64,000 nucleotides of DNA from Haliotis rufescens (Eukaryota): contig NW_025963791.1 in assembly GCF_023055435.1 (NCBI RefSeq), positions 7,564,001 through 7,628,000 of the forward strand, given 5' to 3'. This document shows, piece after piece, positions 12,001 through 53,000 of this stretch. Every line of letters starts with the position of its first letter. The stretch's first letter is position 1. The notes under the pieces were generated by a model. It was not told the origin of the DNA, ran no database searches, and saw only the letters and a program-made list of their open reading frames with translations. Both the position numbers and the translations under genes were made by a program.

Positions 12001-13575
12001 TTTAAAATTTGTATGAAAAATTCATTCAGGCGTAATTCTTTTGAAAATCACTGATACAGGCTTCAGAGAGTCAAACTGTTCATATTTCAGACATGTATAC
12101 TCAAAGTTGGTGTCAGTTCAGTGTAGCCTGTTGTTGCTTGTGTTAGTAAAGGTCACAGCACTTATTGCTTGTCATAAGAGGTGATGAAGTTGGATCAGGA
12201 CAGGATTGGCGACTTGGTTGATAGCATGTCGTTGTTACCCCCACTGCATGAGTTGCTCACAATATCAATCATTGGTTTGTCTTGCAAGACCTATTTATCT
12301 ACACGCTGCTGTCATATGGCTGAAACATTGCTGACTTGTCTACAGCGAGAAACAAGCATACTGCCGTGAGTAGCGTGTTAAGTAACCTCCTCCTCCTCCT
12401 GTGCCTGCAGCCCCCACCGTGCTGCAGAAGATGGAGATGGCCCTGAGGAACGAGAACCTGAGCGAGGAGGTGGTGGAGCAGTGCTTCATCTGCATCAAGG
12501 AGGAGTGGATGAAGTGAGTACAGGGTCCCTACATCGCCACCGAGTCCATACATATCCACACAGTCCATACATGGCCACAGTGTCCCTCATAGCCACAGAG
12601 TCCATACATGGCCACACTGTCCATACATATCCAAAGAGTCCATACATGGCCACAGTGTCGCTCATAGCCACAGAGTCCATACATATCCACAGAGTCCATA
12701 CATGGCCACAGTGTCCCTCATAGCCACAGAGTCCATACATATCCACAGAGTCCATACATGGCCACAGTGTCCCTCATAGCCACAGAGTCCATACATGGCC
12801 ACAGTGTCCCTCATAGCCACAGAGTCCATACATGGCCACAGAGTCCATACATATCCACAGAGTCCATACATGGCCACAGTGTCCCTCATAGCCACAGTGT
12901 CCATACATGGCCACACTGTCCATACATATCCACAGTGTCCCTCATAGCCAGAGTCCATACATAGCCACACTGTCCATACATATCCACAGTGTCCATACAT
13001 AGCCACAGAGTCCATACATAGCCACAGAGTCCATTCATGGCCACAGGGTCCATACATCACCACACAGTCCATACATAGCCACAGAGTCCATACATAGCCA
13101 TATTGTCCATAGTTAGCCAAGGGGGTCGGGTAGCCTTGTGGTTAAAGCGTTCGCTTGTCACGTCGAATTCCCAACAATGTGTGAAGCCCATTTCTGGTGT
13201 TCCCATTGAATATTGCTAAAAACGGCGTAAAACCATACTCAATCACTCACTCACCCACTCACTCACTCACTCACTCACTCACTCACTCACTCACTCATAG
13301 CTAGCCATGTAGTCCATAGATAGCCATTAGTCCATACAAATAACAATGAAGTTTTTCCAGCTGATCACTTCATTCTTATTTTCCTTTTCAGTAAGGTGAA
13401 GGTGTTGTTTAAGTTCACCAAGGCAGGAGGCAGTCGGTCAAAGGAAGACACAGAGAAATTGTTCAAAGTCGTTAACGCACAGGAGGAAGACAAACAACTA
13501 CTCAAATTCTGGATGACAGGCCTCAGTGTACAGTATCGGACCCACATACTGGCATCCTCCAAGAATCAACACTGA
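6099..13575 (+). CDS. FLCN: Folliculin. Coding exons 6099-6314, 6417-6554, 8539-9022, 9667-9824, 10145-10258, 10917-11184, 12411-12513, 13392-13575 (1665 nt, 554 aa)
   Basis: Diagnostic motifs [93 protein letters not shown] and [10 protein letters not shown]. All introns are GT-AG and the phases join into one open frame. Confidence 0.97.
6635..7398. mobile_element. hAT-like MITE in FLCN intron 2, interrupted by a SINE
   Basis: TIRs TAGGGCTGGGA...TCCCAGCCCTA; degenerate 8-bp flanks GTCACTGT/GTGAATGT; subterminal ACCCGG repeats. Confidence 0.7.
6955..7305 (-). mobile_element. tRNA-derived SINE, family D
   Basis: Minus-strand tRNA-like head (GTGGTAGAGCG..GGGTTCGATCCC); 12-bp TSD CCTTCTCTTGAG at 6943-6954 and 7306-7317; empty site preserved near 7951. 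Confidence 0.9.
7451..8087 (+). repeat. Local duplication: 7451-7940 copies 4613-5102; 7941-8087 copies the pre-SINE MITE end and its flank
   Basis: 490-bp match with only a few substitutions; the second block matches 6933-6954 joined to 7318-7442. Confidence 0.92.
9170..9475 (+). mobile_element. Degraded SINE family C 5' part joined to a family B 3' part
   Basis: CAGCACCATACCCATGCTCGTG (family C) followed by GATCAATGCTCATGATGTCAATCACTGG...GGCGTTAAACAACAAACAAAC (family B). Confidence 0.65.
11266..11794 (+). mobile_element. SINE family A (11266-11433) and SINE family C (about 11506-11794) in FLCN intron 6
   Basis: Family A copy flanked by TSD CTTCTTTGGAATCA; family C copy matches 55979-56257. 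Confidence 0.85.
12535..13110. repeat. Minisatellite of 18-20-bp GCCACAGAGTCCATACAT-type units in FLCN intron 7
   Basis: Roughly 30 variant units, starting about 20 bp after the exon 7 donor. Confidence 0.93.
13121..13296 (+). mobile_element. Degraded SINE family A with expanded (CTCA)n tail
   Basis: GGGTAGCCTTGTGGTTAAAGCGTTCGC...GGCGTAAAACCATACTC followed by the tetranucleotide run. Confidence 0.85.
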
Positions 13576-13893
13576 AACATGTGATACGATATTGTTTCTA
13601 CCATCGAGACCTCAGTGTACAGTATCGGACCCACATACTGGCATCCTCCAAGAATCAACACTGAAACATGTGATACGATATTGTTTCTACCATCGAGACC
13701 TCAGTGTACAGTATCGGACCCACATACTGGCATCCTCCAAGAATCAACACTGAAACATGTGATACGATATTGTTTCTACCATCGAGACCTCAGTGTACAG
13801 TATCGGACCCACATACTGGCATCCTCCAAGAATCAACACTGAAACATGTGATACGATATTGTTTCTACCATCGAGACCTCAGTGTACAGTATC
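13521..13893 (+). repeat. 89-bp tandem repeat (4 full units plus a partial) spanning the FLCN stop codon
   Basis: Units at 13521, 13610, 13699, 13788 and a partial at 13877, identical by eye. Each contains codons [17 protein letters not shown] and the stop. Confidence 0.95.
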
Positions 13894-15664
13894 AGATCAA
13901 CAGAAAGGTTCAACACTGTAATCGAAACAGCGTCACGAGTGAAGGCTTTTACCACTAGGCTACCCGACCACCCCGGAATAATACTTGACACCACAAGAAA
14001 AACCAAAGTCACTCACTCATTCAACCCAAGGTCATCACTGAAACTGAGGATGCAAAATATGTTCCACCCTATTGAGTTGAAGGCTTAGGTCATGACAGGC
14101 CTCGTTGTATGTTATAATTCCTATAGTATCATCTCCCAAATCACAGCTAAGTCAATGTCCATCCAAGTCAAGCTTGCATAATACAGGACAATCAAACTAG
14201 AATTTGTTTTACCATTGCATTTAACCTGATGTACAGATCTGTAACATATTGTTTCACTGCGTAGTCAATGTTATTACTGGATTGACAGTCTAATGTTAAA
14301 CATTGTCCCATCTCAGTCACCTCAATCAGCGGGGGGAAAGGGGGACACAGGGGGCCTAGTTGTCTGAGGTGCCACAAATCCCTGTGCAGAGTTGTGTCCC
14401 TTAGGCTTGACAGAAACCTATGATCATGGGGTTGAATCCTGGATTCACCCTGATTATGTTTCAAGGTTTGTCAGCACCATACCAGTGCTTATGGGCTTCA
14501 CAAGAAGAGAAAAGGATATCCAGTTTTGTACCCACCTTGCCTTCATTTTGTTTGTTTGAAATCTGTATTTTGAATGTTGTTATTAATGTCTTTCCCATAA
14601 AATGCACCTGTGATTTTGTTAGATATGATGTAAATATTTTTGGCTCTATACAATAATAAAATGTTACGAGTTTTGTTGTAGTTCCTCCTTTGCATAGGCT
14701 GTATGTGTGGTCAGAATGTTGGTACATTGTTTGTTTGTTTGTTTTGTTTGTTGTTTACGCTGCACACAGCAATATTCCAGCTACCGGTATATGATGGTGG
14801 TCTGTAAATAATCGAGTCTTGACTAGACGATCCAGTGATTGACATCATGAGCATCTATCAACTGGGATCGATGACATGCATCAACCAAGTCAGTGAACCT
14901 GATGGTATGCAGAATAATAATTGTTGCAGGTTGATGGAATATTGTTGACCTTGGGCAGTCTATAGTTCTAATTACAGAAACTTGTATTGCTGGCACAGTG
15001 TCTCATCTGTGTTCCCTGTGCAGTAGGAGGTTGTTCCCCACTGTGTTGTATCATGTGCCATTGAAACGTATCAGACTGCTAAACTTATCCGTTACATAGT
15101 ATCAAACACATAGTTTGATGCAAGTTGACTGAATATGAACCCATTATTTACAGCGAGAAGTGATGGTGTTCTCAATACACCAGCAACATGTTCCCCACAA
15201 TCATTAGTAGAAATTCTATTTTACAAATTTATATTTCCAGGAGGCGACTTGATGGTAGGGACACTGTTGATACTACGTGTTTACACAATCACATCATGCA
15301 CTGATCATATTCTATCTTTAATAAGTACTTATGTAACTTGGGGTGTTTCCTGTCATTAAGGGGCATTGGGGAGCTTAATGGGTAAAGCGTTCTCTCTTCC
15401 CATGTATAGGTACACTCTATGAAAGTCCACCTTTGGTGTCCCTGCCTCGATAGTGGAAGGATACTTCTAAAAGCACCATTTAAATCACTAATGAATGGAA
15501 GGTGAACCATTGTCAATTTGTTCAAATTAATGGAACACATGTCCAATACATGTTGACAGATCTCTTGTAACTAGTGAAAACCAACCATTGTTAACAAATA
15601 ACGAAGACGTGGATATTGAACTGAAACAATTGTTATTACCACCATTAAAAAGGACTGAATTACA

Positions 15665-39044: not shown

Positions 39045-40496
39045 AATGCTTCGATAATCTCGATAAATGAAGAGCGTACTGCAGGGCTGCTGTAGCTAGC
39101 TGAGACAATGTCAGACAATGTCGTGACGTCACAAGATCGCCCAATGACGTCATAGTGACGTCTAGTCGGTAGATGGCGCTGTCCTTCGGAAGATATCGGC
39201 ATATTTCGTCTTGAGTGTGTTCCGATTGGTACACAGCCGAAACATACCATGATCATGAGATGTGCTTTGTTATTTGCTATAATATCATGGGCTTATATCA
39301 AATCATTTTGAACAATATCAATCCAAAAACTGTAAAAGGAATTGGCGATGTTTTCATGTGTTTTTTCAAATGTATTTCTTTTCTGGAAGAGATTTTTTTT
39401 TTATTGTGAGCTATCAGTGGCATTTCACAATTGTATTTATATCTGTAAACATATGCTTGCGCAGGAAAGCAACAGGGAGATAGTTTGATCAAGGCCAGAT
39501 GGAAGTGTTGAAAAAACTCATTAAGGGTTGAAAAGTCCCTTCTGTGTTACAGGTAAAATGAGTGATTCAGTTGGGTTTTAAGGACGCATTTAACATAATT
39601 TCGGTTAAATAGCGGCAAGATGAATTATGTTTTTTTCTTAAACGTTTGTGAGGATGAAAACTCAGCATCGCTTCAAACTTCTTAGTTCGATACACGTCAC
39701 TGAGTTACTCAAATATGGAAACTTCTACATCCTTCCGTATCACTATTTTAAGTCTCAATTTGAAAACTGAAAATGACATGGACCAGTTATCCTTTTAAAT
39801 TTCCCACCCTTTTTCTTTGTATTTTACGCCATGCACTGTTCATGATTATAGCAGATGGACCAGTTGTCTCGCGCGCGTCAAGACACTGTGCAGACATGCG
39901 TCCTTCCTAGACGTACCATACACAGAATACTCTGGTCGTTGGTTCTTGATTTGTCAGCACCATACAATAGGCTGGAGAATTCTCACTTAGCTTATGATAA
40001 CATATGAATATGTTATCGTGTTTGTTCAGGCGAACGCTTGACTTGCATTTGTGTGTGTTTGTGACCGGTGAGGCAGTATATACCCCCATTTTAGCCAACA
40101 TCTGGTGTCATCACTATTTATTAGTGATTCACAAATACATGTTTATAATACATTCGGAATCGTACAATGGACTCTGCTTTTAGCAGAACTTTCTAATGAT
40201 TATGGAGTTTTGTCTATTATGTATTGAAGCTATATATATGTTTTGTGTAGCCATCAATTCAACTGTCACCAAGGCCAGTACTAAGGGTATGCCCCCAGCC
40301 GATCACACAGGTCATCCAAGGGTGTTGAATAAATCTAAAATATGTTGTATTCTTGTCCTGAATAGATTAGTTTCAATTTAGTAGCCTCGTGGTTAAAGCT
40401 GTATTTGTTCGTCTTTGTTTTTTGTTGTTTAACGCAATGCATGACCAGGGCCCACTTGCACAAATCTTAGCTCTACGACTATTGTAAGCCTATGTT

Positions 40497-40785
40497 AGTA
40501 GTTGTGTACATCTGTCTGGAACCGCTCAGGATTACAGAACTGCTCAGGATTACAGAACCGCTCAGGATTTCAGAACCGCTCCTGGCTTCTGATTGGTCGA
40601 GAGGATCACGTGACCTCTGTGACGTCACTTCCGGTCACGTGACCTGCGCATGCGCGCGGGGCATGATGGGACTTGCGCGCGCATCCAAGATGGCGGCACT
40701 TCCGTTTCCGGTCACGTGACCTGCACAGTGCATGATGGGTCCTGCGTGCGCCTCCAGTAGGGCGTCACATCCTTTTCCGGTGGCA
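40497..40785 (+). repeat. Left TIR of the Polinton (truncated internally)
   Basis: Reverse complement of 49756-50008, plus two extra copies of the 18-mer GAACCGCTCAGGATTACA. Confidence 0.95.
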
Positions 40786-41153
40786 ATACGAAAGAAGAAG
40801 AAACCGAAGTGCTGCGATGGTTCACCAAGAAAAGTCATCACCGAAACACATCTGTGCTGTATCTCACTCAGAACTTGTTTGCTCAATCGCCGCAACATCG
40901 CACCATCAGTCTGAATGCTCACTACATGGTCCTCTTTAAAAATCCGAGAGATGCATCGCAGATCGACAGTCTGGCTCGCCAGGTGTTTCCAGGCAAAGTT
41001 CCTTTTCTGAGTGAAGCCTATGAAGACGCTACCCGAGAGCCTTACACTTACCTGTTCTTGGACTTGAAGCCCACCACGTTGCAAGACCATCGCGTACACG
41101 CCGGCCTGTTTTCGAGATCCGAATTACCCCTCGTGTATGTGCCGATCCTATGA
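40786..41153 (+). pseudogene. FtsK/A32-like packaging ATPase, C-terminal half only
   Basis: FTKKSHHRNTSVLYLTQNLF..RTISLNAHYMVLFKNPRDASQI..LARQVFP..AYEDAT..PYTYLFLDL. Walker A and B are missing; the fragment is fused directly to the TIR. Confidence 0.92.
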
Positions 41154-41218
41154 GATGAAGAGATTTTCATAAAAGGAGGTGAAACCTCAGACCTTCCTTC
41201 AGTTGACCTACATCCATC

Positions 41219-42169
41219 ATGGGGCAAAGACGGAAACAGGTTCATCCTACGAAGGGAAAGAACAAAGACAAAGAGATGGTGAATGATGACAGTATGGTCT
41301 CCCCCTCATCGCTACAGGGACTTGTGACCTCTGTATTTCACAAGACTCCTTCACCTCCAGGATCGTCTCCCTCTTCAATGGTACCCGTGAACATACATTG
41401 TCAGCAGCAGCCATCACCACGTCCTTCAACATCATCAGCACCTTCGCCACCCTCGTCACCACATGATCTTCAACGCTTTCAACCTCTGCAACAGCAACAG
41501 CAGCAGCAGCAGAAGTCCACGCCAGGTACGTCTTACTCTTCGATGGTACCCTTGAACAAGCATCGTCAGGAACAACAACGGCCTTCCTCATCAGCACCCT
41601 CACCCCCACTCGATCTTCAACGCTTTAAATGTCTGCAGCAGCAGGAGCCCCCATGAAGTAAGAAAAAAGACAAGAGACCGCCTATTTTTCCGACAAGGGA
41701 TGCAACAACCCTTGCCGTCAAAGGAAGAAATCGTCTTTTGCAGTGGTTTGCGATTGTCATGCGGAACCTGAGAGCAGGACACATCCCATTGAAAGCTCAA
41801 CATAAGACGTGGTTGCAGAGACATAATGATACCCTGACTAAAATTGTCAATCCACGTCTGCCTATGGATGAACGTCTTGACTACCTGATGCAACGCAGTG
41901 GTAGTGGAACACTTGCAGGGGTCTTGACACGCATTCTGTTGCAATGGCAACATTATCTTCAAGCACCACTCCTCAAACAGGGTAACACCAGGCGTCACCG
42001 ACCTACAACAACAACAACGATGACTACTAAGCCAAAAGTAAAGGCTCATGAAAATGTCATGAAAGCATATCAAGCTGATGCTCTCAGACGATTGGTGCAC
42101 ATGCGGACCCAAAGAAAGTCCAAGAAGGCAGATCAACAGTTGCAACTCCCTCCTGCCACTGCCTGGTAA
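41219..42169 (+). pseudogene. Polinton protein: S/P/Q-rich N-terminus plus a helical domain paralogous to the next gene; one premature TGA at 41654
   Basis: ORFs 41219-41656 and 41738-42169 are in the same frame, and the sequence between them is open. Confidence 0.7.
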
Positions 42170-42226
42170 AAGAGAGAAGCTGCAGATCAGGTGACTCATT
42201 CAGGCTTTCACCTCCATGCAAGAAAG

Positions 42227-42557
42227 ATGTCTCAGTGCCTAAGGAAACAGAAACACGCTCTGTGTCATTTGTGTGCTGCCGCTCCAGCGATGCGCAAAGT
42301 CATTCTCAAACATGCTCCTACTGATCTCATCCGTGCCCTTTGTGAATGTGTGGTGAACTTGTATGCAGGTAATATTCCCATGACAACGACGCAACGTCAA
42401 AACTTGCAACGACCCGGTAAAGTCTTGAATACGCTCATGAAAAAAACAAGTACCTCTAAGCAAGAAACGTAAACTTCTTCAACATGGAGGAGGATTATTA
42501 GGAGGACTCATACCTCTTATTGGTTCTGCCCTAGCCTCTTTGTTTGGAGGAAAGTAA
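42227..42557 (+). pseudogene. Small basic Polinton virion protein with a Gly-rich amphipathic tail; frameshift near 42460
   Basis: RKVILKHAPTDLIRALCECVVNLYAGNIPMT, then the shifted frame KKRKLLQHGGGLLGGLIPLIGSALASLFGGK and stop. Confidence 0.8.
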
Positions 42558-42606
42558 TAAATGGTCTGACACCAGGAAGGTTGGGATCAGTGTGTGGTGT
42601 GCCACC

Positions 42607-43538
42607 ATGAAGTACGCACGCAAGATGGTGTTGATGTCTGAAGACACATGGCAAAGTCTACAGGCCACCAAACAACGTCATCGTCATACCCCTCTCTTGG
42701 AAAAGAAACGTCTCCAAAATTTGGAAGAGATGGACGCGTTGATGCAGAGGTCACAGCAGCCTTTCCACATGCGGGAACAACAATACAACCAACTGTTGCA
42801 ACACATGCTAGAGTTGCAGCGCCAACAGCACAACAACAACAACAACAGCAACAACAACACCATCAAACCACTACAACCCAAAGTGACACCACCACTACCA
42901 CCGTCATCACCATCAACAATGGACACCACAGGTAGACCTGCCCCTCCTCAACAAGTGATAGACGAAGTGGTCATGAGTGTTCCTAAAGCCATGTCCAGTA
43001 AAGCCATGAATTTTATGACAAGGATCTCGACTTGAGTTGGACTCCAGAGGGAACCCTGACCATGGAAGGGAAACCTGTCCCTTGCACACACATGGTGGAC
43101 TTGATCAACGATTTAGTGCGCCACCAGAAAACCAAAGAGGGACCTGCAGGTTGGACCATTTTGAGTCACCATTTGGCCAGCAGTCATGTCCCTCATGAAA
43201 TAATTGAAAATCCTCAACGATGGCAATTGATGCAGAAGCAGCAGCAGCAGCAACACCATCCTCATGCCATACCAGAAACACCCATAACCCTGTTCTCCCT
43301 CCCCACGTTCTCCCCGCAAAGTCACAATGAGAGAAGAAGAAGGAGGCGGCAGCTGGATCCACAAGCGGAAGAAGAAGAAGAAGAAGATGAGATGCCACCC
43401 CCACCTCCTTCGTGGCAACTGGATCCACCAGTGGAGGAAGAAAAAGATGTGATGTCAACCCCATGGTTGATGACTCCACCTCCATCTGATACCAAACAGG
43501 ACAGTCATCAACAGGCGAGGTTCATGGATACCCTTTAG
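42607..43538 (+). pseudogene. Conserved Polinton protein of unknown function; frameshift near 43030
   Basis: Kozak GCCACCATG; MKYARKMVL...QQYNQLLQ...SWTPEGTLTMEGKPVPCTHMVDLINDLVR...PAGW...HVPHEIIENPQRW. I am not sure which PW/PZ label applies. Confidence 0.75.
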
Positions 43539-43619
43539 CACCACCTAAGAAAAAAATAAATCTCTCCCCTTCTCTATAAAAAGGCCATTCATGTAGGAAG
43601 TGGCATCAGTCTGAGAGAA

Positions 43620-44874
43620 ATGAAGCGACAGACCAAGACGTGACAGCGCATTCTTCCCTCTGCTGCTGCTGCAGGGAAACAAAACAAAGGATTTCCTACT
43701 TCCCTTTGGACGGCCTGGTTGGAAAAAACCTACTTTCATCCTGAACATCCTGCAAGTTTTGGAGGCTGGCGACCTTTGTGGAAAGCAGAACGCATCCACG
43801 CTCAAGATGCAAGAACCAGTAAAAGCAAGAAGAAAACCAAGCCATCGCAAAGTCAAATCAAGCGTTGGTTGCAAACCAAAAGTACCTACACCTTGCACAC
43901 ACCAGCCAGACGCTCCTTTCCGAGAGACCACTATTCATGTGGGAGGGGTCGATGAACTGTGGCAAGCAGACTTGAGTGACATGATTGCCTTTCAAGACGA
44001 CAACGAAGGATTCAAATATCTGCTGTGCGTGATCGATGTGTTTTCAAAGATGGCATGGGTGCAACCCCTGAAGGCCAAGAGGAGTTCTGCTTTGACCGAA
44101 GGTTTTCAAACCTTGCTGATGCAACAAGCCAAAGATTGACTCCCTGCTCAATTGCAAACAGACAAAGGCAGAGAATTTGTCAACCGTCCTTTCCAGGCTC
44201 TCATGACGAAGCATGGCATTCATTTCTACACCAGTCAAAATCCTGAAACGAAAGCAGCCGTGGTGAAACGGTTTCAAAGGAAAATGTGGCGATACTTTAC
44301 ACAGCATGGGGCCAGACACTATTTGAAAGTCTTACCCCAGTTGATCAAGTCATACAACCGTCGTGTGCATCGGACCATTGGCCAGCGACCTGTGGACGTC
44401 CTCCCAGGAGATCCCCTGTCAGAAATTCGGGTGTTAGACTACATGGAGGAAAAACAACAACAACGGCTTCAGCGCAAAAAGAAAATAACAACACAAAGAC
44501 AAGACCCCAAGACAAGACCCCCCTCTCTTTTACTGCCGGGCACCCGTGTACGTCTGAACAAAACCAAAGGCACCTTTGAGAAAGGTTATCTCCCCAATTG
44601 GACCACTGAACTGTTTACGGTGGACCGGTTGGTAACAGGGAGAACACCTCCTGTGTATCGGATCAAAGATGATCATGGTGAAGTCCTCCAAGGAACTTTT
44701 TACCCTGAAGAAATACAACCCATCTTGAAAACAGACGATGTGTATGCCGTGGATCACGTGCTAAAAAGACGTCAACGACCGAAACAGGGTCAAGAAGAGG
44801 TCTTGGTGAAATGGACTGGCTACCCTGCCAGTTTTAATTCTTGGATCGCTGCAGATCATTTACAGATAAAATAA
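43620..44874 (+). pseudogene. Retroviral-type (rve) integrase with a C-terminal chromodomain, inactivated
   Basis: YFHPEHPASFGG, WQADLSDM..YLLCVIDVFSK, LQTDKGREF, FEKGYLPNWT, VLVKWTGYPASFNSW. Stops at 43641 and 44137, a frameshift near 43925, and the catalytic E replaced by K (KAAVVKRF). Confidence 0.95.
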
Positions 44875-44919
44875 GGAGCATGCTGTCTCTCAGACTCATT
44901 CAGAGGGTGGACACACGTG

Positions 44920-45375
44920 ATGACAGAACCGCCACCACCACCACCACCGTCATCACCTCTGCAGAGAAGCCTCTCAGCATCCGTGGGTACCGATGAACCT
45001 ACCCTTGCTGCTGCACCTCGTCATCACCAGCGCCGACACTCACCTTGGTGTTGTTTTGGCATGACGTTACACCGCAGTGAAGTTGTGTTTTTTGCTCAGA
45101 TCATTGTGATATATGGCGTGATCATCATGAGCATGGTACAGTTGGCCTTGGATCACGGAGAGAAACAGTTGTGGACAGCCCTGCTCTCAAGTTGTTTAGG
45201 ATACATACTTCCACCACCCACCTTGGCCGCCTCACCAGGCATACCCACGACAACCCACCCACCAGAAGACTTCAACTTGATACCTCATCCACCCAGAGTT
45301 TTCTACCTTAGCTCATGTCATCATGGCTGTCACCTTTTTTTCGAAACAAGACTTTTACATGACCCTACCCAGTGA
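44920..45375 (+). CDS. Small two-transmembrane Polinton protein
   Basis: Hydrophobic segments VVFFAQIIVIYGVIIMSMVQL and LWTALLSSCLGYILPPP; has its own TATA-like/Inr pair upstream. Confidence 0.65.
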   Translation: MTEPPPPPPPSSPLQRSLSASVGTDEPTLAAAPRHHQRRHSPWCCFGMTLHRSEVVFFAQIIVIYGVIIMSMVQLALDHGEKQLWTALLSSCLGYILPPPTLAASPGIPTTTHPPEDFNLIPHPPRVFYLSSCHHGCHLFFETRLLHDPTQ

Positions 45376-46343
45376 TGCCTCCATGGACATCTATCCAAAC
45401 AACACCATCAATGCGTATGAAATCAAGTTGCCTTATCCTCTGATTCTGGACCGTCAACAGTGGGAGGTTGGCGTCAGCAAAATTCACTTTCCGATGACAT
45501 GGTACAACGTCGCCCCACCCTTTGACTGGTTTGCGCTGAACCTCAAACTGAAAAAAGACACCCTTGTGTATGAAAGCATGGGGAGCGCTATACCACAGCC
45601 ACAGTATGGTATCGTCCGTTACGAAAGCAAGAAGATTCCAATCGAGAAAGGCGTCTCTTCATCTGAAGATTTGGTGAAAACCCTCAACCGTTTGATTCAG
45701 GAACATATTACGGATGTCTTGAAAGAACAGCCCTCAGACAGAGTCCAAAGTGATGGAAGACGGTTTGTCATTGATGTCAGGTATCCCAAAGATAGTCTTC
45801 GATTTGACATGCTTGAAGATGGAAAGGTGCGATTACAAGCCCCTCAAGAAGTAGCAATCAATCATCCTCTCCTGGGAAATACTGGTGGACCACTCTATTC
45901 CACGGAAGTGATCATGCCAAGTCCACTCTCGAGAATGCTCGCATTTGTTCAACTACCGATCCTCGGTGAGGAGGACTATAAAACCTACACAGAGACGCCC
46001 GTTCCCTTGACTGCCTTGGCCCAGTGGCAAGTGGGGGCTACTCCCATGACAAGTGGCTATGTGGAAATCACAGCTGATACAAAAGCACATCGTCTGTCAG
46101 GATTTGATACTGTGTACATTTACACCAACCTGGTCGAAGATCAAATTGTGGGCAACACAGATGTCAAAGAAGATGATGCAAGACAGTGTGGTGATTAAAA
46201 GCCCTCAGCACATTCACTACCTTGGGCTGCGTCATGGTTCCTTTGACGGTATTAAACTCTATATCATGGACGACACGGGGCAACCCGTGCCATTTCAAAT
46301 GGGGAAAGCCATCGTGACACTTCACTTCAGACGCCGCTACTAA
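45323..46343 (+). pseudogene. Minor capsid protein (penton, PX); frameshift/deletion near 46165
   Basis: FYMTLPSDASMDIYPNNT..WEVGV..IHFPMTW, VYIYTNLVEDQIVG, IMDDTGQPVPF..GKAIVTLHFRR. Confidence 0.9.
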
Positions 46344-46356
46344 CGCAGAAAGCAAC

Positions 46357-46731
46357 ATGTTGGGACACGCATTGGCACACCAGATGAATCGAGGACAGTT
46401 TGGCCAGTGTGGGAGTGGTATCAAAGTATACAAAGGACGTTATCATCAACGTGGCAGTGGTCTTGGAGGTATCTTGAAGATGGCGTTGCCTTTCCTTAAA
46501 TCTGCCGGAACATCAGTGCTCAAGATGGGTAAAAAGATCCTGCCTGGGTTGGTGAGTGATGTGGTTGGAGGCAAACGCAAATGGTCAGAGAGTCTGAAAC
46601 ATCGCGGCACAGCAGCCCTGATGGATGTCTTGGAGGAACGTGAGGAGCCGAGACCCCCTGAAAGCCGTAAAGTCGTCCCAACCACCATCACCCACCAGAA
46701 ACAGCGTAAAAGGAAAAGAAAAACGGTTTAA
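46357..46731 (+). CDS. Basic core/cement-like virion protein with QxGxG motifs
   Basis: QCGSGIKVYKGRYHQRGSGLGGILKMALPFLK and a basic C-terminus KRKRKRK; lies between penton and hexon. Confidence 0.8.
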   Translation: MLGHALAHQMNRGQFGQCGSGIKVYKGRYHQRGSGLGGILKMALPFLKSAGTSVLKMGKKILPGLVSDVVGGKRKWSESLKHRGTAALMDVLEEREEPRPPESRKVVPTTITHQKQRKRKRKTV

Positions 46732-46806
46732 AGGTCAGTCCTCATCAGACTTTCAACCTGACCAGACGTCCTTCAAGGCAGAGAAAAGGGTGAAACATCC
46801 ATCATC

Positions 46807-48136
46807 ATGATGCGCCGAGATGCTTGCGAATGTTCAAAGGCCCAGTTGGATCTCTTTACTGTACCCCCTGTGTCCACCTCTGTGCAAGAGGGTCAGTGGA
46901 TTTGTTATAGTCCCATGGCACCACCCTCTGTAGCAGGACCACTCCAGTTTAACATTTCCAATCCCGTGAACGCTTACATTGATTTGAAACAGTGCTACCT
47001 GAGAGTATGTCTACGTGTGATGAAAGATGATGGCACGGATACCGTTCTAGCGGATTACCCTGTATCGACAGTCAACAATGTGATACATTCCCTGTTTCGC
47101 GAAGTGCGGCTGCAAGTGGGACACAATCAGTTGGAGATCACACCCTCCATGGGCACTTACCCTTACAGAGCCTACTTGGAAACCCTGGAAAGTTATGGTA
47201 CAGGAGCCAAAACATCTCACCTTCGATGTCCTGGATGGTTCACCAACGATGCTAGTAAAATGGACGTCTTCAATCCTGATGCAGATGCGAACACAAGAAA
47301 CACAGGTGTCAGAACGCGACGCGATCTTATCATATCCAGCCAAAGAAGTGGAACTGACAGGCCGTCTACACTGTGACCTGTTTCTTCAAGACCGTTATCT
47401 GCTGGATGGTGTCCCTATGAAACTGGAATTGTTACGAAGTCCCGATGAGTTCTTCTTCATGTGTGCTGCTGATGGTGTCTACAAACTAGCGCTGACCAAA
47501 GCCGAATTCTATGTCCGTCAGCTCAACATCGATCCTGCTGTCCGAGAAACACACGTGTCCAGTCTGAACGCTGGGGTGACTGCCAAGTATCCCCTTTCAC
47601 GTGTGCATGGGACTGCCCATGACATCCCGAGAGGCGGTAGGGACTTTCACAAGGATCACCTAATCAGTGGCCAATTACCAAAATGCGTGGTCCTGGGACT
47701 GGTGGACAATAGTGCCTACGTAGGAAGCAAAGAGAAGAATCTGTACAACTTCAAACACAATCATGTCACCATGATGAAGCTCAAAGTCAATGGCCAGGAA
47801 GTCCATGGCACGGAAATGAAAAGCGACTTCAGCAACAACAGTGCCCATTTGAAACAAGTCTACATGAATCTGTTCCGAAACACGGGGCAGCTATGGCGAC
47901 CTGAGACCTGCGAACTGACTCCCAAGGCCTTTACTCAAGGTTACACCTTGTGGGTGGTGGATCTCACCCCAGACCTTGGCGCTGATGAAGGCATCAACTA
48001 CCCTCAACACACTGGCAAGTCGGGTTTGGAAATCCAGTTTGGACAAGCTCTCGAGGACCCAGTCACCCTCATCTGCCATGAGGAATACGAAAATGTTCTG
48101 GAAATAGATCGTTTCCGGAATGCGATGATGGTATAA
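46807..48136 (+). pseudogene. Major capsid protein (hexon-like double jelly roll, PY); frameshift near 47335
   Basis: CECSKAQLDLFTVPP, NNVIHSLF, TYPYRAYLETL, GRLHCDLFLQDRYLLDGV, AKYPL, GQLPKCVVLGLVDNSAY, GYTLWVVDLTPD. Confidence 0.93.
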
Positions 48137-48189
48137 AAAGAGCAGCGACAGACGGTCATGCCACACTTTTTCTCCTCCTACAAGGAACC

Positions 48190-48757
48190 ATGGATGAACC
48201 ACTCGGGTTGAGCACCTTGGATTTAGAAGCCCTCGTGGCTGATGACGAACCACTTCATGCCATCTACCGGGGCACCCTGGCCAGAGATGAATTTGCCAGA
48301 CTGGGATGGCCCCTTTTACCCCAAAGCCTACGTGATCAACACAGATTTAAGCGATCAACCTGGCACACACTGGGTGAGCATCTATCGTCCAGCTCCTGGA
48401 TCCGTGGAAATGATGGATAGCTATGGACTGTATTCATTACCCCTGTTTAAAGAGACTTTGAATCGCATGGGTCAGATTCAACAACGATGGAATACACGCC
48501 CCTTACAACATGGATACAGCACGTTGTATGGGGTGTACTGTCTCTACATGCTGACCTATCGCGTGCGTGGGTGGACTTTTAATCAAGTGTTAGATACGTT
48601 GGACTGGAAGGACACCGCCAAGAATGATGCCACGGTATTAGCATGGTTTCATACCAAAGTGTCTACCTCCGTACCTGTGGATGAGATGCCTGCCTTTCGA
48701 CTGAGTGCCCAGACGCGTACCCTACATCAAAAGAACCAACCTTTCTGCCCTTATTGA
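48190..48757 (+). pseudogene. Adenain-like cysteine protease; frameshifted near 48300, catalytic Cys replaced by Tyr
   Basis: YVINTD..PGTHWV (His), DSYG (Asp), PLQ (oxyanion Gln), and STLYGVYC where STxCG is expected. Confidence 0.9.
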
Positions 48758-49604
48758 CAGGACACTTGTTCACTGAACCTACGATCACCTGACTGTCAAC
48801 ATTCCTGATTGAGGAGTGTACATACGTTCACTGCGTTTTAGGAATGTACATACGTTCACTATCAAAGTGGCAAATGTTCTTTTTTTTCAAACTGTACATA
48901 CGTTCACATACGTGTACATACGTTCATGTTCACAAAAGTCACAGGGACGCCCCTAATCCTGTGACTTTTGTTTTGTTGTGTTTGTTCATGTGAGCGGGGC
49001 ATTAAAAAAAGTTGAACCCATAGTAGTGTTGTGTTGTCTGTAAGATGAAGAAAAACAAAACAGGATCGCCATGCACACCCCAGAGAAAACCAAAACCAAA
49101 ACAAAACAAGATCGACATCTGACCGCTTCCTGCATTCCTACACCACGTCCATGTCTGTCGATTCACCTTTAGAAATTCAGGCAACACCTTTAGCACCTTT
49201 AAATTCACTTTCCGACTGTCACTTAGACGAACGACTGTCATAGTGGGCTACAATACACGATCGCCTTGTGGAACGAAACCTTACAACTCAAAGTTTACAA
49301 TCACATGACATGATTTGTGGAATGTTGTTGCAAGATTCTTCGCCGATATGACGTCAACCTAGCAACAAAGTGGCAGAGTCGTCGACTGTGTATGATAACT
49401 TTGATAAGCTCGTCTCAGTGAGCTATCATCTCCACATGCCATCACCCCACACCCACCAAAACAAAACAAAACAAAGAACCCGACTCCCCTCCCTCCTTCT
49501 TCCCTCCCTTCACCACCACCCTCCCTTCACCACCACCACGTCAATGTTTAGAACAACAACAAAAGATTTTTGACGCGCTTCTTTCAATGTCGATCCTGTT
49601 CACC

Positions 49605-50008
49605 TTTTACGTGCGCTTCTCCGGGTTTTCCCCTCCTCCCCGGAAACGGAGGCGACGCCCTCTTGGAGGGGCGCACGCCACCGGACACGGATGCGACGTC
49701 CTCTTGGAGGTGCGAACGCCACCGGACACGGATGCGACGCCATCTTGGATGCGCGTGCCACCGGAAAAGGATGTGACGCCCTCTTGGAGGCGCACGCAGG
49801 ACCCATCATGCACTGTGCAGGTCACGTGACCGGAAACGGAAGTGCCGCCATCTTGGATGCGAACGCAAGTCCCATCATGCCCCGCGCGCATGCGCAGGTC
49901 ACGTGACCGGGAGTGACGTCACAGAGGTCACGTGATCATCTCGACCAATCAGAAGCCAGGAGCGGTTCTGTAATCCTGAGCGGTTCCAGACAGATGTACA
50001 CAACTACT
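49605..50008 (-). repeat. Right TIR plus three further 41-bp GC-rich subterminal repeats
   Basis: 49756-50008 pairs with the left TIR; CCACCGGACACGGATGCGACG..CTCTTGGAGG units continue inward. Confidence 0.92.
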
Positions 50009-53000
50009 TATGTTAAAGAATGAGATCGCTTTGTGCAAGTGGGCCCAGGTCGCAAGGAGCTTTGCTGTAGCCGTATAACAGTCACCAGGCTCATGGCCCG
50101 TTTGGTCATCCATATTTTGTTATGTGTTTCTAATCTCCAACCTTAACCAACAAGAGAGCGGGCGGACCAACTTTTTTAAAAGTAAACAATTAAAAAAAAT
50201 GGTTTCAAATAATTGCGTAACATATTTTATGAATTTTTAAAGTTTAGAACACTTGGTAACAGCTCTTACTTTAATTTACTTTGAAACGTTTTAATGTAGC
50301 AGCGTAATGGATTGGGCCAAGTTAAGACAGACCTTGTGATTTATGAAGGCAAATATATATTTCTGGACATCGTTACATTGACCAAGTTCTCCGCCCTGTT
50401 GTACTACCGTTCTCATGAGAAAAATCCGGATCCTGTTTCAGGACGATAACACAAGGCCACATACAACGTCTTGCCTTCATCAGATAAGCAGACTTATCAC
50501 CCATAGAACACTCGTAGACCACCTTGACCGTCAAATTAGAGCACAAGTTAGCCCTTATAGCAAGTGAAGACTGGCGTCGAATCCCCACATCTTCTTCCTA
50601 TCCCGTCGTCGACTTGGCAGGCCGTGTGCATTGATGCCCGATGTGGACACACGCGATATTGCCTGAAACCTGTGACATTCTGAAGTGTCATGTCTTGACT
50701 TCAGTCTTGATGGTTGATCGTCTACTGAACAATGAACCCCAACCTCAAAACCGTCGATACAATACCTACGATACAATGTTCTCATCCTCGGCATTACTTG
50801 TAATGACGTTAATTCATGTCTTTTGAGTAAACAAGTATCTTCCATGACATTCGTCCTGTTCTCATTTTAGGAACACTGTTAGTCGTTAACGCTTCTTTTT
50901 CTCATCAGTTTAGGCTGTTGCAGTACATATAATGTTTATGTTGTATTTTCTTTTCCAAGTAAGGATAAATGATGCTTAATGGGCGTTTCATATCACAGTC
51001 AACAACTATTTCACTCACATCACAGCGGCACAATTGAGTCAATAACCTTGTCCAATCATATGACAGAGTGGCTTGTTTGGTGTGGCTTCTTGAAATGGAA
51101 GAATTGAAATGATTATTAATAAATTAATAATGTGTTACAGGCATGGTTTCGCTCCTGCTCACGTCTCTACGTCAAAAACATGACTTTGGTCACGAAATAC
51201 TCGTTAATTATACGTTAATTATATGTTTCTCATCTAAAGATTTTCACCGAGAAAATAAATGTTTAGCCGCGACGTTACGAAGTTTTAGCCATGGTCAAAG
51301 GGAGACAATTCAATCTATTTTAATTCCATTGGGTAACGCTATGGTCATTGTAGCACAATGAATATCATTGTTACTGCAGTGCCGATTTACCCAATTTGGC
51401 ATAAGCCCATATCACATTAAATCAAAAACGACGGTACAATATATTTTTTTATGATGGCAAGTGCAGACGACATGACGTATGCTTTAGGATTTACCGATCT
51501 AAAGCCTGGACCTGTTTGTTTGCCACTCAGCAATATTCCATCTATATGACGGCCGTCTGTAAATAATCGAGTCTGGACCAGACAATCCAGTAATTGACAT
51601 GAGCATCGATCTACGCAACTGGGATATGATGACATGCATCAACCAAGTCAGCAAGCCTGTCAGTGACCACCCGATCCCGTACGTCCTCTCTTACAAGCAT
51701 AGTCAGTCGCCTCTTGAGACAGGCATTGATTGCGGAAAGGCAATTCTAACCCGGATCTTCACCCGTCTAAATCCTTGCGGTTAGTAGCAGTTAACAGCAG
51801 TAAGGTCGTCTTTACTTATTTTTGTGTTTCTCATCTCCAAGGTTTTCCTAGAGGGGCGAGCGGGCGGGAAGAAAAGGTTCATTATTGCAGAATACTTATT
51901 TGAGGCTTTGACGAACTATACCAAATATTTAGACATATGTCTGGTCGGCTATTATGTTTTAGGAATATTTTTTTTATTCATTAAATAAGAATGACCTTAT
52001 CTTGTTAGGTTTAAATTTTACGACAAAGAAATATTATTTCCTTAGTGAAGAAAGATATATTTTAAAAGCATTCGCAAATTCCAGAACTATTTTATTTTAT
52101 AAGCATAGAATTAAACTGAGTTTTATGCAAATATGCATTAGAATGTATTGAACGTTCTGGAGATAAGACAGTAAATCGAAGCATGCACTGGTGTATATTT
52201 GTAATAGTGGTATTTGCCCGATACGGTTGGCTACCCTATCAGTTTCATCTATATTTATATGAAGTATGAAATGACAAACTATACGTACGTATAGATGGAA
52301 TCATTGTTAATGTTACCAAATTGGATCATTGCAAGTGAACCAGCTTGGGATGTGTTTGTGTTGGTTTGAACCGACCTTTTCTGGTACAAAGTCACTTTTA
52401 CTCGGAGTTTTTCAAAAGTGGTAGTAACTTACGTCCACTTAAACGACAAAGGCTGCACAACCCCGAACTTTATAAATAACATAGATGACCGTCTATGTGA
52501 TTGCAATTGTAGCAGGTTTTCGTGACAATTACTTTATCAAATATCAGGAGGTAGGGGGAGACGAGAAACACAAAAATAAGTAAGGACGCTTACGACACGT
52601 ATCAGGTACAGAGGTCTTAATCTAACCAGGAATACTGCAATGTAATTGATGAATTTCAAGCAAGAATGAAACAAACACTTCAGAACAGAACAAACACACA
52701 CTTTATAAAGCCTATAACAAAACATTGATAGAAGTAACAAAAAAATATATTTTATTGCAATGTACTTTGTATCACATGCCCAAAATTGTTTATTTAAATT
52801 TATGGATACTTAAGACTGATTTGTCAAATTGTAATAAAACAGGATCGTTGTTCTAAAAAGTTCTAAACTATTTCTATAATTCATATCAATATTAACAGTT
52901 CATCTAGCACAAGAATAATTTCTTGATCCATCTGAAGACACACGAGCAGCAGGCTGCAACAAATGATTGTGTCTGCACAGACACCATAGAGGGCTGAGGG

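Follow-up and report, generated by a model that had tools for sequence, protein, structure and literature searches.

Putative host-type core promoters with a fixed box-to-initiator spacing in Polintons of the abalone Haliotis rufescens

The DNA analysed here, hereafter the window, is a stretch of 64,000 nucleotides (nt) from Haliotis rufescens (assembly GCF_023055435.1, contig NW_025963791.1, positions 7,564,001 to 7,628,000, forward strand). It contains a decayed Polinton/Maverick element of a multi-copy family, termed family A below. Most genes of this element are preceded by a pair of short motifs: a TATA-like box, N-ATAAA, and about 33 nt further the initiator word CA(G/T)T. From sequence comparisons, we consider it probable that these pairs are core promoters of the host type, which would be read by RNA polymerase II (Pol II), start most genes separately and be squeezed into the end of the preceding gene.

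Results

Box and initiator pairs in the window

Throughout, spacing is given as D, the position of the initiator A relative to the first base of the 8-nt box. An initial annotation of the window had listed seven pairs whose two words start 31 nt apart (30 nt at the gene of the major capsid protein, MCP). All seven boxes and all seven initiator words were recovered letter by letter at their coordinates, with D=33 at six sites and D=32 at the MCP site (Table 1). The sites thus have the layout that defines a Pol II promoter with TATA box and initiator: on the strand of the gene, a TATA-like box precedes an initiator word by about 30–33 nt, and an ATG follows. Each pair had also been described as lying shortly upstream of an ATG. 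The distance from the initiator word to the first ATG is indeed 14–27 nt, except at MCP, where it is 72 nt, and at orf3 that first ATG is not the start of the gene. At orf1/2, the spacing of the pair is kept in 9/9 copies holding the site.

Pairs of this kind might be due to chance, or simply follow from protein motifs and from the richness of gene ends in A: gene ends rich in Lys and Ile make TAAA words, coding sequence yields sizeable scores and the rule was first drawn from one copy. We therefore compared the pairs with shuffle and strand controls. Between the terminal inverted repeats (TIRs; 8970 nt, + strand), TAAA occurs 29 times and TCAKT (K, G or T) 20 times, and these words form nine TAAA-to-TCAKT pairs at distances of 5–60 nt; five of these lie at 29 nt and one at 28 nt, and the − strand has none at 28–30 nt. 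The 54.5 kb outside the element contain no such pair on the + strand and seven on the − strand. None of 500 dinucleotide shuffles reached five pairs at one spacing (maximum two).

Table 1. Predicted promoter pairs and other features of the Polinton in the window (D in nt)
Feature	Position	Strand	Predicted +1	D	Downstream gene and remarks
Box CATAAAAG + TCAGT	41168..41203	+	41201	33	orf1/2 (ATG 41219; broken by a stop in the window)
Box overlapping orf1/2 stop + TCATT	42165..42200	+	42198	33	orf3 (ATG 42227)
Stop TAA / AATAAA / box AATAAATG triple + TCAGT	42555..42591	+	42589	33	orf4 (ATG 42607); GU-rich behind
Box TATAAAAA + TCAGT	43575..43610	+	43608	33	integrase (ATG 43620)
Box GATAAAAT in last integrase codons + TCATT	44865..44900	+	44898	33	small hydrophobic ORF (ATG 44920)
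Possible hidden pair GATATATG + ACAGT in hydrophobic ORF	45108..45144	+	45140	32	penton (ATG 45323, about 183 nt further)
Hidden pair TATATCAT + CCATT in last penton codons	46260..46295	+	46292		core-like gene (ATG 46357, 65 nt further)
Box CGTAAAAG in last core codons + TCAGT	46705..46739	+	46737	32	MCP (ATG 46807; frameshifted in the window)
Box TATAAAAA containing MCP stop + ACACT	48132..48167	+	48165	33	protease-like gene (ATG 48190)
AATAAA, candidate polyA signal	43555..43560	+			after orf4, apart from the next box
ATTAAA, candidate shared polyA signal	49001..49006	+			right-hand gene block; in 5/5 copies checked
Decayed Polinton/Maverick, family A	40497..50008	+			about 9.5 kb; termini AGTAGT...ACTACT
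Left TIR	40497..40785	+			partner 49756–50008; 231 nt at 97% complementarity; alignment extends to the termini
A32-like packaging ATPase, 3′ remnant	40790..41153	+			5′ part and promoter deleted in the window copy, as is the leftward small gene

Held-out genes and distant families

Two genes that are missing from the window served as held-out cases. The packaging ATPase, whose 5′ part is deleted from the window, has a pair with D=32 in other family-A copies, and a conserved leftward gene of 86 amino acids (aa), likewise deleted, has D=32 in 7/9 family-A copies searched. The latter gene is related to a gene of the D families (34% identity, E=2e-13).

The genome contains at least 151 MCP matches. 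We examined 40 regions of 20 kb around chosen matches, ten from family A and 30 from more distant families; grouped at 85% identity of MCP, they give 11 clusters. MCP identity of the non-A families to family A is 25–53%. The initial annotation had proposed comparing the motif spacing in related Polintons with shuffled controls, and this comparison bore it out. In 88 upstream windows from 12 non-A copies, NNTAAA with CAKT at D=33 occurred 12 times (shuffle mean 0.75; 0/1000 shuffles as good) and TATAWA (W, A or T) with CAKT at D=33 eight times (shuffle mean 0.12). The strict TCAKT version was found in only 3/88, with 3/1000 shuffles as good, and 57/1000 at any distance. Because the starts of the 88 windows had been chosen from tables of open reading frames (ORFs) after some upstream sequence had been seen, we repeated the test without picking genes. 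Among 109 homologue-labelled ORFs of ten non-A copies, 11 had D=33, compared with one on the reverse strand. By bins of D, 16 labelled ORFs fell at 32–34, eight at 27–29, nine at 30–31, six at 35–37 and five at 38–40; among unlabelled ORFs, D=33 occurred in 6/161.

A scan of viral contigs for related loci gave none and a metagenome scan gave three, two of which were used (L170 and L171, not L172), so the evidence from outside this genome is thin. A genome-wide search for TATAAAAG-N17-28-TCAGTY returned 1323 matches against 1109 in the control; the 100 listed were mostly repeats, and the search was not used.

Pairs within coding sequence

The initial annotation had reported no pair for the penton and core genes. 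For the core-like gene this does not hold: a pair lies in the last codons of the penton gene (46260/46292). At this place, the codon preceding a conserved Phe is CCA, GCA or TCA in 8/8 families, so that together with the Phe codon it reads CATT at the same position, 51–81 nt before the core ATG and with a TATA-like word 30–32 nt upstream. The background frequency of A as third base in comparable codons is 0.245 (n=2212), and none of 89 other four-fold degenerate columns in five genes was uniform (best 7/8). The target column was counted separately from these controls, because the family-A penton used in them is frameshifted at its end. The sequence is thus constrained beyond the needs of the protein, a result that concerns the core-gene site alone. 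The metagenome locus L170 has the same penton-end pattern and, counted by hand, a pair upstream of MCP similar to that of the window, whereas L171, from another source, has CCT at this codon and an intergenic TATAAAAG instead.

For the penton gene, a pair within the hydrophobic ORF (45108/45140) is suggestive only. It is also chosen by a matrix trained without family A, and the leader behind 45140 is ATG-free in 9/10 other copies. Single-family hidden sites such as this are not secure, because coding sequence alone often gives best scores of 10–13 per gene, and once 19.4.

Taken over all sites, chance or protein by-product is an extremely unlikely explanation of the pairs, given the shuffle and strand controls, the held-out ATPase and leftward genes, and a synonymous base that is uniform under three different amino acids. 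For the junction sites and that of the core gene it is mostly refuted, and it remains for the penton site at 45140.

Some further candidates were noted. Inside MCP, a box/initiator-like pair at 47416–47452 recurs at the same position in L059/L060 and L069/L070, with an in-frame ATG 10–11 nt later that would open a C-terminal product of 196–226 aa; it scores 19.4 in family B3 and only about 8 in A and B2, and may be an internal promoter or a product of the protein sequence. For orf4, candidate hidden pairs 115–190 nt upstream, inside orf3, were seen in six families and in L171 with scores near background. Two conserved words without a box upstream, CAG-TGG at the end of the integrase and CAT(T/C)GAA at that of MCP, were rejected as protein-driven.

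Stop codons and 3′ ends

Of 19 junctions, chosen by hand and each with a clear box, eight show an overlap of box and upstream stop codon and 11 do not. In five of the eight the TAA of the box is itself the stop (families A, B2, D1 and D2), and the other three overlap in another way. This supports a fusion of stop codon and putative TATA box as a recurrent design across families. In the window, an overlap with TAA had been claimed for four stops. The stop at 48134 lies inside the protease box, and that at 44872 shares a single base with the box at the integrase end. The other two depend on the copy: 42167 is the orf1/2 stop in the window, whereas the unbroken copy measured ends orf1/2 at a TGA immediately ahead of this position, still overlapped by the box; 42555 is the orf3 stop in unbroken copies only, not in the window, because orf3 is frameshifted there. 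As had been stated, one box doubles as AATAAA; it is the one at 42556.

The pairs could also be 3′-end signals, with N-ATAAA as polyA hexamer or variant and the CA as cleavage site of the upstream RNA. Such a function would fit the position of the boxes at or just behind stops, the box that reads AATAAA at junctions in families A, D1, D2, D4 and in L171, and the GU-rich run behind site 42589. TATAAA, CATAAA and GATAAA are moreover weak polyA variants and cleavage favours CA, which we count for this explanation. However, the pairs of the ATPase and the leftward gene have no upstream gene on their own strand to terminate. For the core gene and MCP, the box precedes the stop of the gene before, as does, by about 50 nt, the CA of the core gene. 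A GU-rich stretch follows the CA at only 1/9 sites (42556/42589) and the T fraction is at most 0.33 behind all, which does not mark these sites in general as polyA signals. Finally, the distance is sharp at 32–33 nt, whereas polyadenylation in white spot syndrome virus (WSSV) begins 11–19 nt after the signal (PMC1550435). We consider 3′-end signals a very unlikely explanation and continue with the promoter interpretation.

Canonical AATAAA stands at only two family-A junctions. In 5/5 family-A copies it sits at the stop of orf3, follows that of orf4 and occurs once within the integrase, and ATTAAA is found within the penton and, downstream of the protease, after about 240 nt. The combined use of one site as stop, polyA signal and TATA box, which had been proposed as a general grammar, is a pattern at few junctions and no rule: its TATA/initiator and stop-fusion parts are supported, its general polyA part is not.

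Comparison with host promoters

In eight host genes, motif-inferred values of D are 33 (H2B), 33 and 34 (two H2A forms), 31 (H3, H4 and two HSP70) and 30 (one HSP20). Of 17 heat-shock loci, three were counted; the rest have no CAKT at 24–40 nt behind a proximal TATA, are near-duplicates or are not full genes. The host range appears to cover the Polinton value. Because histone and heat-shock genes show a similar spacing of 30–34 nt, the pair is probably an ordinary core promoter for host Pol II, and we dropped the idea of a Polinton-specific 33-nt ruler, given the 33–34 of host H2A and H2B.

Alternatively, the pair might be recognized by a virus-specific factor, or depend on one, that comes from the element or from a helper virus; the sharp 33 nt and the relaxed first base of the box would then be its signature. 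Virophages use giant-virus promoters in this way: mavirus, Sputnik and the Phaeocystis globosa virus virophage (PgVV) carry promoters of their helpers, as described in PMC6723459 and 10.1101/2022.07.28.501842. The peak of D is sharp at 33 while 5/8 host genes give 30–31, the boxes are often not canonical TATA, and several conserved ORFs are without known function. Host H2B and H2A, on the other hand, give D=33–34 with TATAAA boxes, and the initiator matches that of Drosophila and of early WSSV genes as given in PMC1550435. Furthermore, no 5- or 6-mer is shared upstream of the 23 promoter sites (116 and 50 of 300 shuffles were as good). A virus-specific factor is thus an unlikely explanation, and we retain that of host-type core promoters. 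Separately, the 23 sites show a purine (A/G) bias at +25 to +30 downstream of the initiator, loosely resembling a downstream promoter element.

The element and its surroundings

The window Polinton is flanked by a 6-bp target duplication, TATGTT (40491–40496 and 50009–50014), and has TIRs, as expected of a Polinton/Maverick. Stops or frameshifts are present in most of its genes. Pfam Pox_A32 matches the ATPase of another copy (E=1.4e-6), which places it among the A32-like ATPases. The rve integrase (PF00665, E=7e-12 on another copy) is fragmented in the window, as is the accompanying chromodomain. The MCP matches Capsid_N at only E=0.015; its closest homologues are labelled Haliotis 'F54H12.2-like', and a PDB search with it gave no match. 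The genes named penton, core and protease are presumably such, judged from position and familiar motifs.

Family-A copies with a recognisable duplication measure 10.2–10.5 kb (3/4 checked), and the family (L031–L050), whose elements are about 10.3 kb long, has kept integrase and virion genes. Neither the window element nor the stretch between the TIRs in the family-A copies examined contains a protein-primed DNA polymerase B (pPolB). It is present in the B and D families (with Pfam support in family B1), and pPolB remains adjoin one older A-related copy (L173/L174). Because pPolB is absent between the TIRs, family A is likely a non-autonomous, polymerase-less derivative and a satellite of polymerase-bearing families.

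Before the right TIR, 49050–49750 differs from the one other copy compared, with high contig depth at 49148–49471; it is probably a secondary insertion. The Polinton interrupts, within a short high-copy repeat around 40464/50023, a host tandem array (about 14800–50300) with four copies of a repeat of about 6.5 kb, each with an unnamed ORF of 302–310 aa on the − strand. Minisatellites with periods of 19 nt and 89 nt occupy 12476–13140 and 13429–13962.

Discussion

The pairs described here suggest how these Polintons may be transcribed. Host TBP/TFIID would bind the box and Pol II would start the RNA at the A of the initiator; each capped RNA would have a short leader, and translation would begin mainly at its first good ATG. 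Since canonical polyA signals follow only orf3, orf4 and the protease, many RNAs would form nested sets with common 3′ ends and not stop at each junction. Where the box at the stop codon is AATAAA, it may also end the upstream RNA. Monocistronic Pol II transcription had been proposed initially. The Pol II part is supported by the conserved spacing, the held-out genes and the host spacing. Strict monocistrony is unsupported, because general polyA function lacks support at the junctions, and nested RNAs sharing their 3′ ends fit as well.

Several observations weigh against the promoter interpretation. The predicted start positions are read from sequence motifs, and the host comparison comprises eight genes whose +1 positions are likewise taken from motifs. 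Only 2/7 window pairs have a box that begins with T. At orf3, the first ATG after the initiator (42216) is out of frame, the gene starting at 42227, and at the core-gene site of family A an ATG follows 7 nt after the predicted +1. The eight families share ancestry, so their agreement at that site does not amount to eight independent events. The high scores of coding sequence also count here, as does a pair inside the ATPase coding region (40935–40972, TTTAAAAA...ACAGT, D=33, initiator at about 40968), which has a similar score and no evident target gene; it was not seen in other families and is likely a false positive. Four sets of RNA-like contigs cover 27–30 of 30 bins and bridge several junctions; contigs cannot show starts, ends or single transcripts, and we counted them neither way. 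Lastly, the penton, MCP and protease genes of the B and D families are mostly without a scoring pair.

These B and D genes mostly begin within a few bases of the previous stop and may be read from longer RNAs. In L051–L090 (B and D), stop and start codons often overlap or nearly adjoin where integrase, penton, core, MCP and protease follow one another (TAATG, TGATG, TAATCATG), a coupling that suggests termination-reinitiation.

When comparing the pairs to known systems, we find most similarity to the core promoters of Drosophila and of early WSSV and baculovirus genes, which also have a TATA-like box about 30 nt before CAGT or CATT and a short leader to the ATG. In PMC1550435, the WSSV early consensus is a TATA box followed 20–30 nt behind by (a/c)TCANT and is likened to the Drosophila core promoter. 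For the baculovirus Autographa californica multiple nucleopolyhedrovirus, PMC8789824 gives a mean TATA-to-start distance of 32 nt, a CAGT initiator and many polycistronic RNAs. Unlike these early promoters, the Polinton pair also precedes late-type capsid, packaging-ATPase and protease genes; its box is relaxed in the first base and often fused to a stop, one site lies in synonymous codon positions, and its starts are predicted ones. With animal Polintons/Mavericks (adintoviruses), family A shares the 6-bp duplication, AGTAGT termini, long TIRs, rve integrase with chromodomain, A32-like ATPase and capsid homologue, but it differs in having no pPolB between its TIRs. Virophages and polinton-like viruses (mavirus with Cafeteria roenbergensis virus, Sputnik with mimivirus, PgVV with Phaeocystis globosa virus) have a related capsid module and likewise one short motif before many genes; their motifs copy giant-virus promoters, whereas the Polinton motif resembles host histone and heat-shock promoters.

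Our literature search, with subscription papers, Repbase reports and supplements outside its scope, found no description of promoters in animal Polintons. In term searches, the word 'promoter' was absent from PMC8502044, PMC11296320, PMC5803895, 10.1101/2023.08.22.554363 and PMC4028283 (Polinton papers and one on Maverick transcription). The promoter type is known and its motifs are of a textbook class; the setting is one for which we found no description, and the additions are the recurrent fusion of stop and TATA box and a promoter in synonymous codons.

The pairs give base-exact predicted start sites. A promoter in the last codons of the penton gene would be a case of dual coding, which can bias estimates of selection on these genes. 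At stake is whether the Polintons of animals live as self-sufficient nuclear viruses or as parasites on the transcription system of a helper. The conservation of a host-type promoter ahead of capsid, ATPase and protease genes among families with only 25–53% MCP identity argues for nuclear expression by Pol II; transcription likely proceeds without promoters of a helper virus, host Pol II starting the genes separately. In a broader and more tentative reading, to which we give slightly less than an even chance, animal Polintons would express the entire virion programme through host Pol II promoters, with one for each gene, made compact by fusion of TATA boxes to stops and by promoters in synonymous codons, with no helper needed for transcription, and family A would be a polymerase-less satellite that has kept this full programme.

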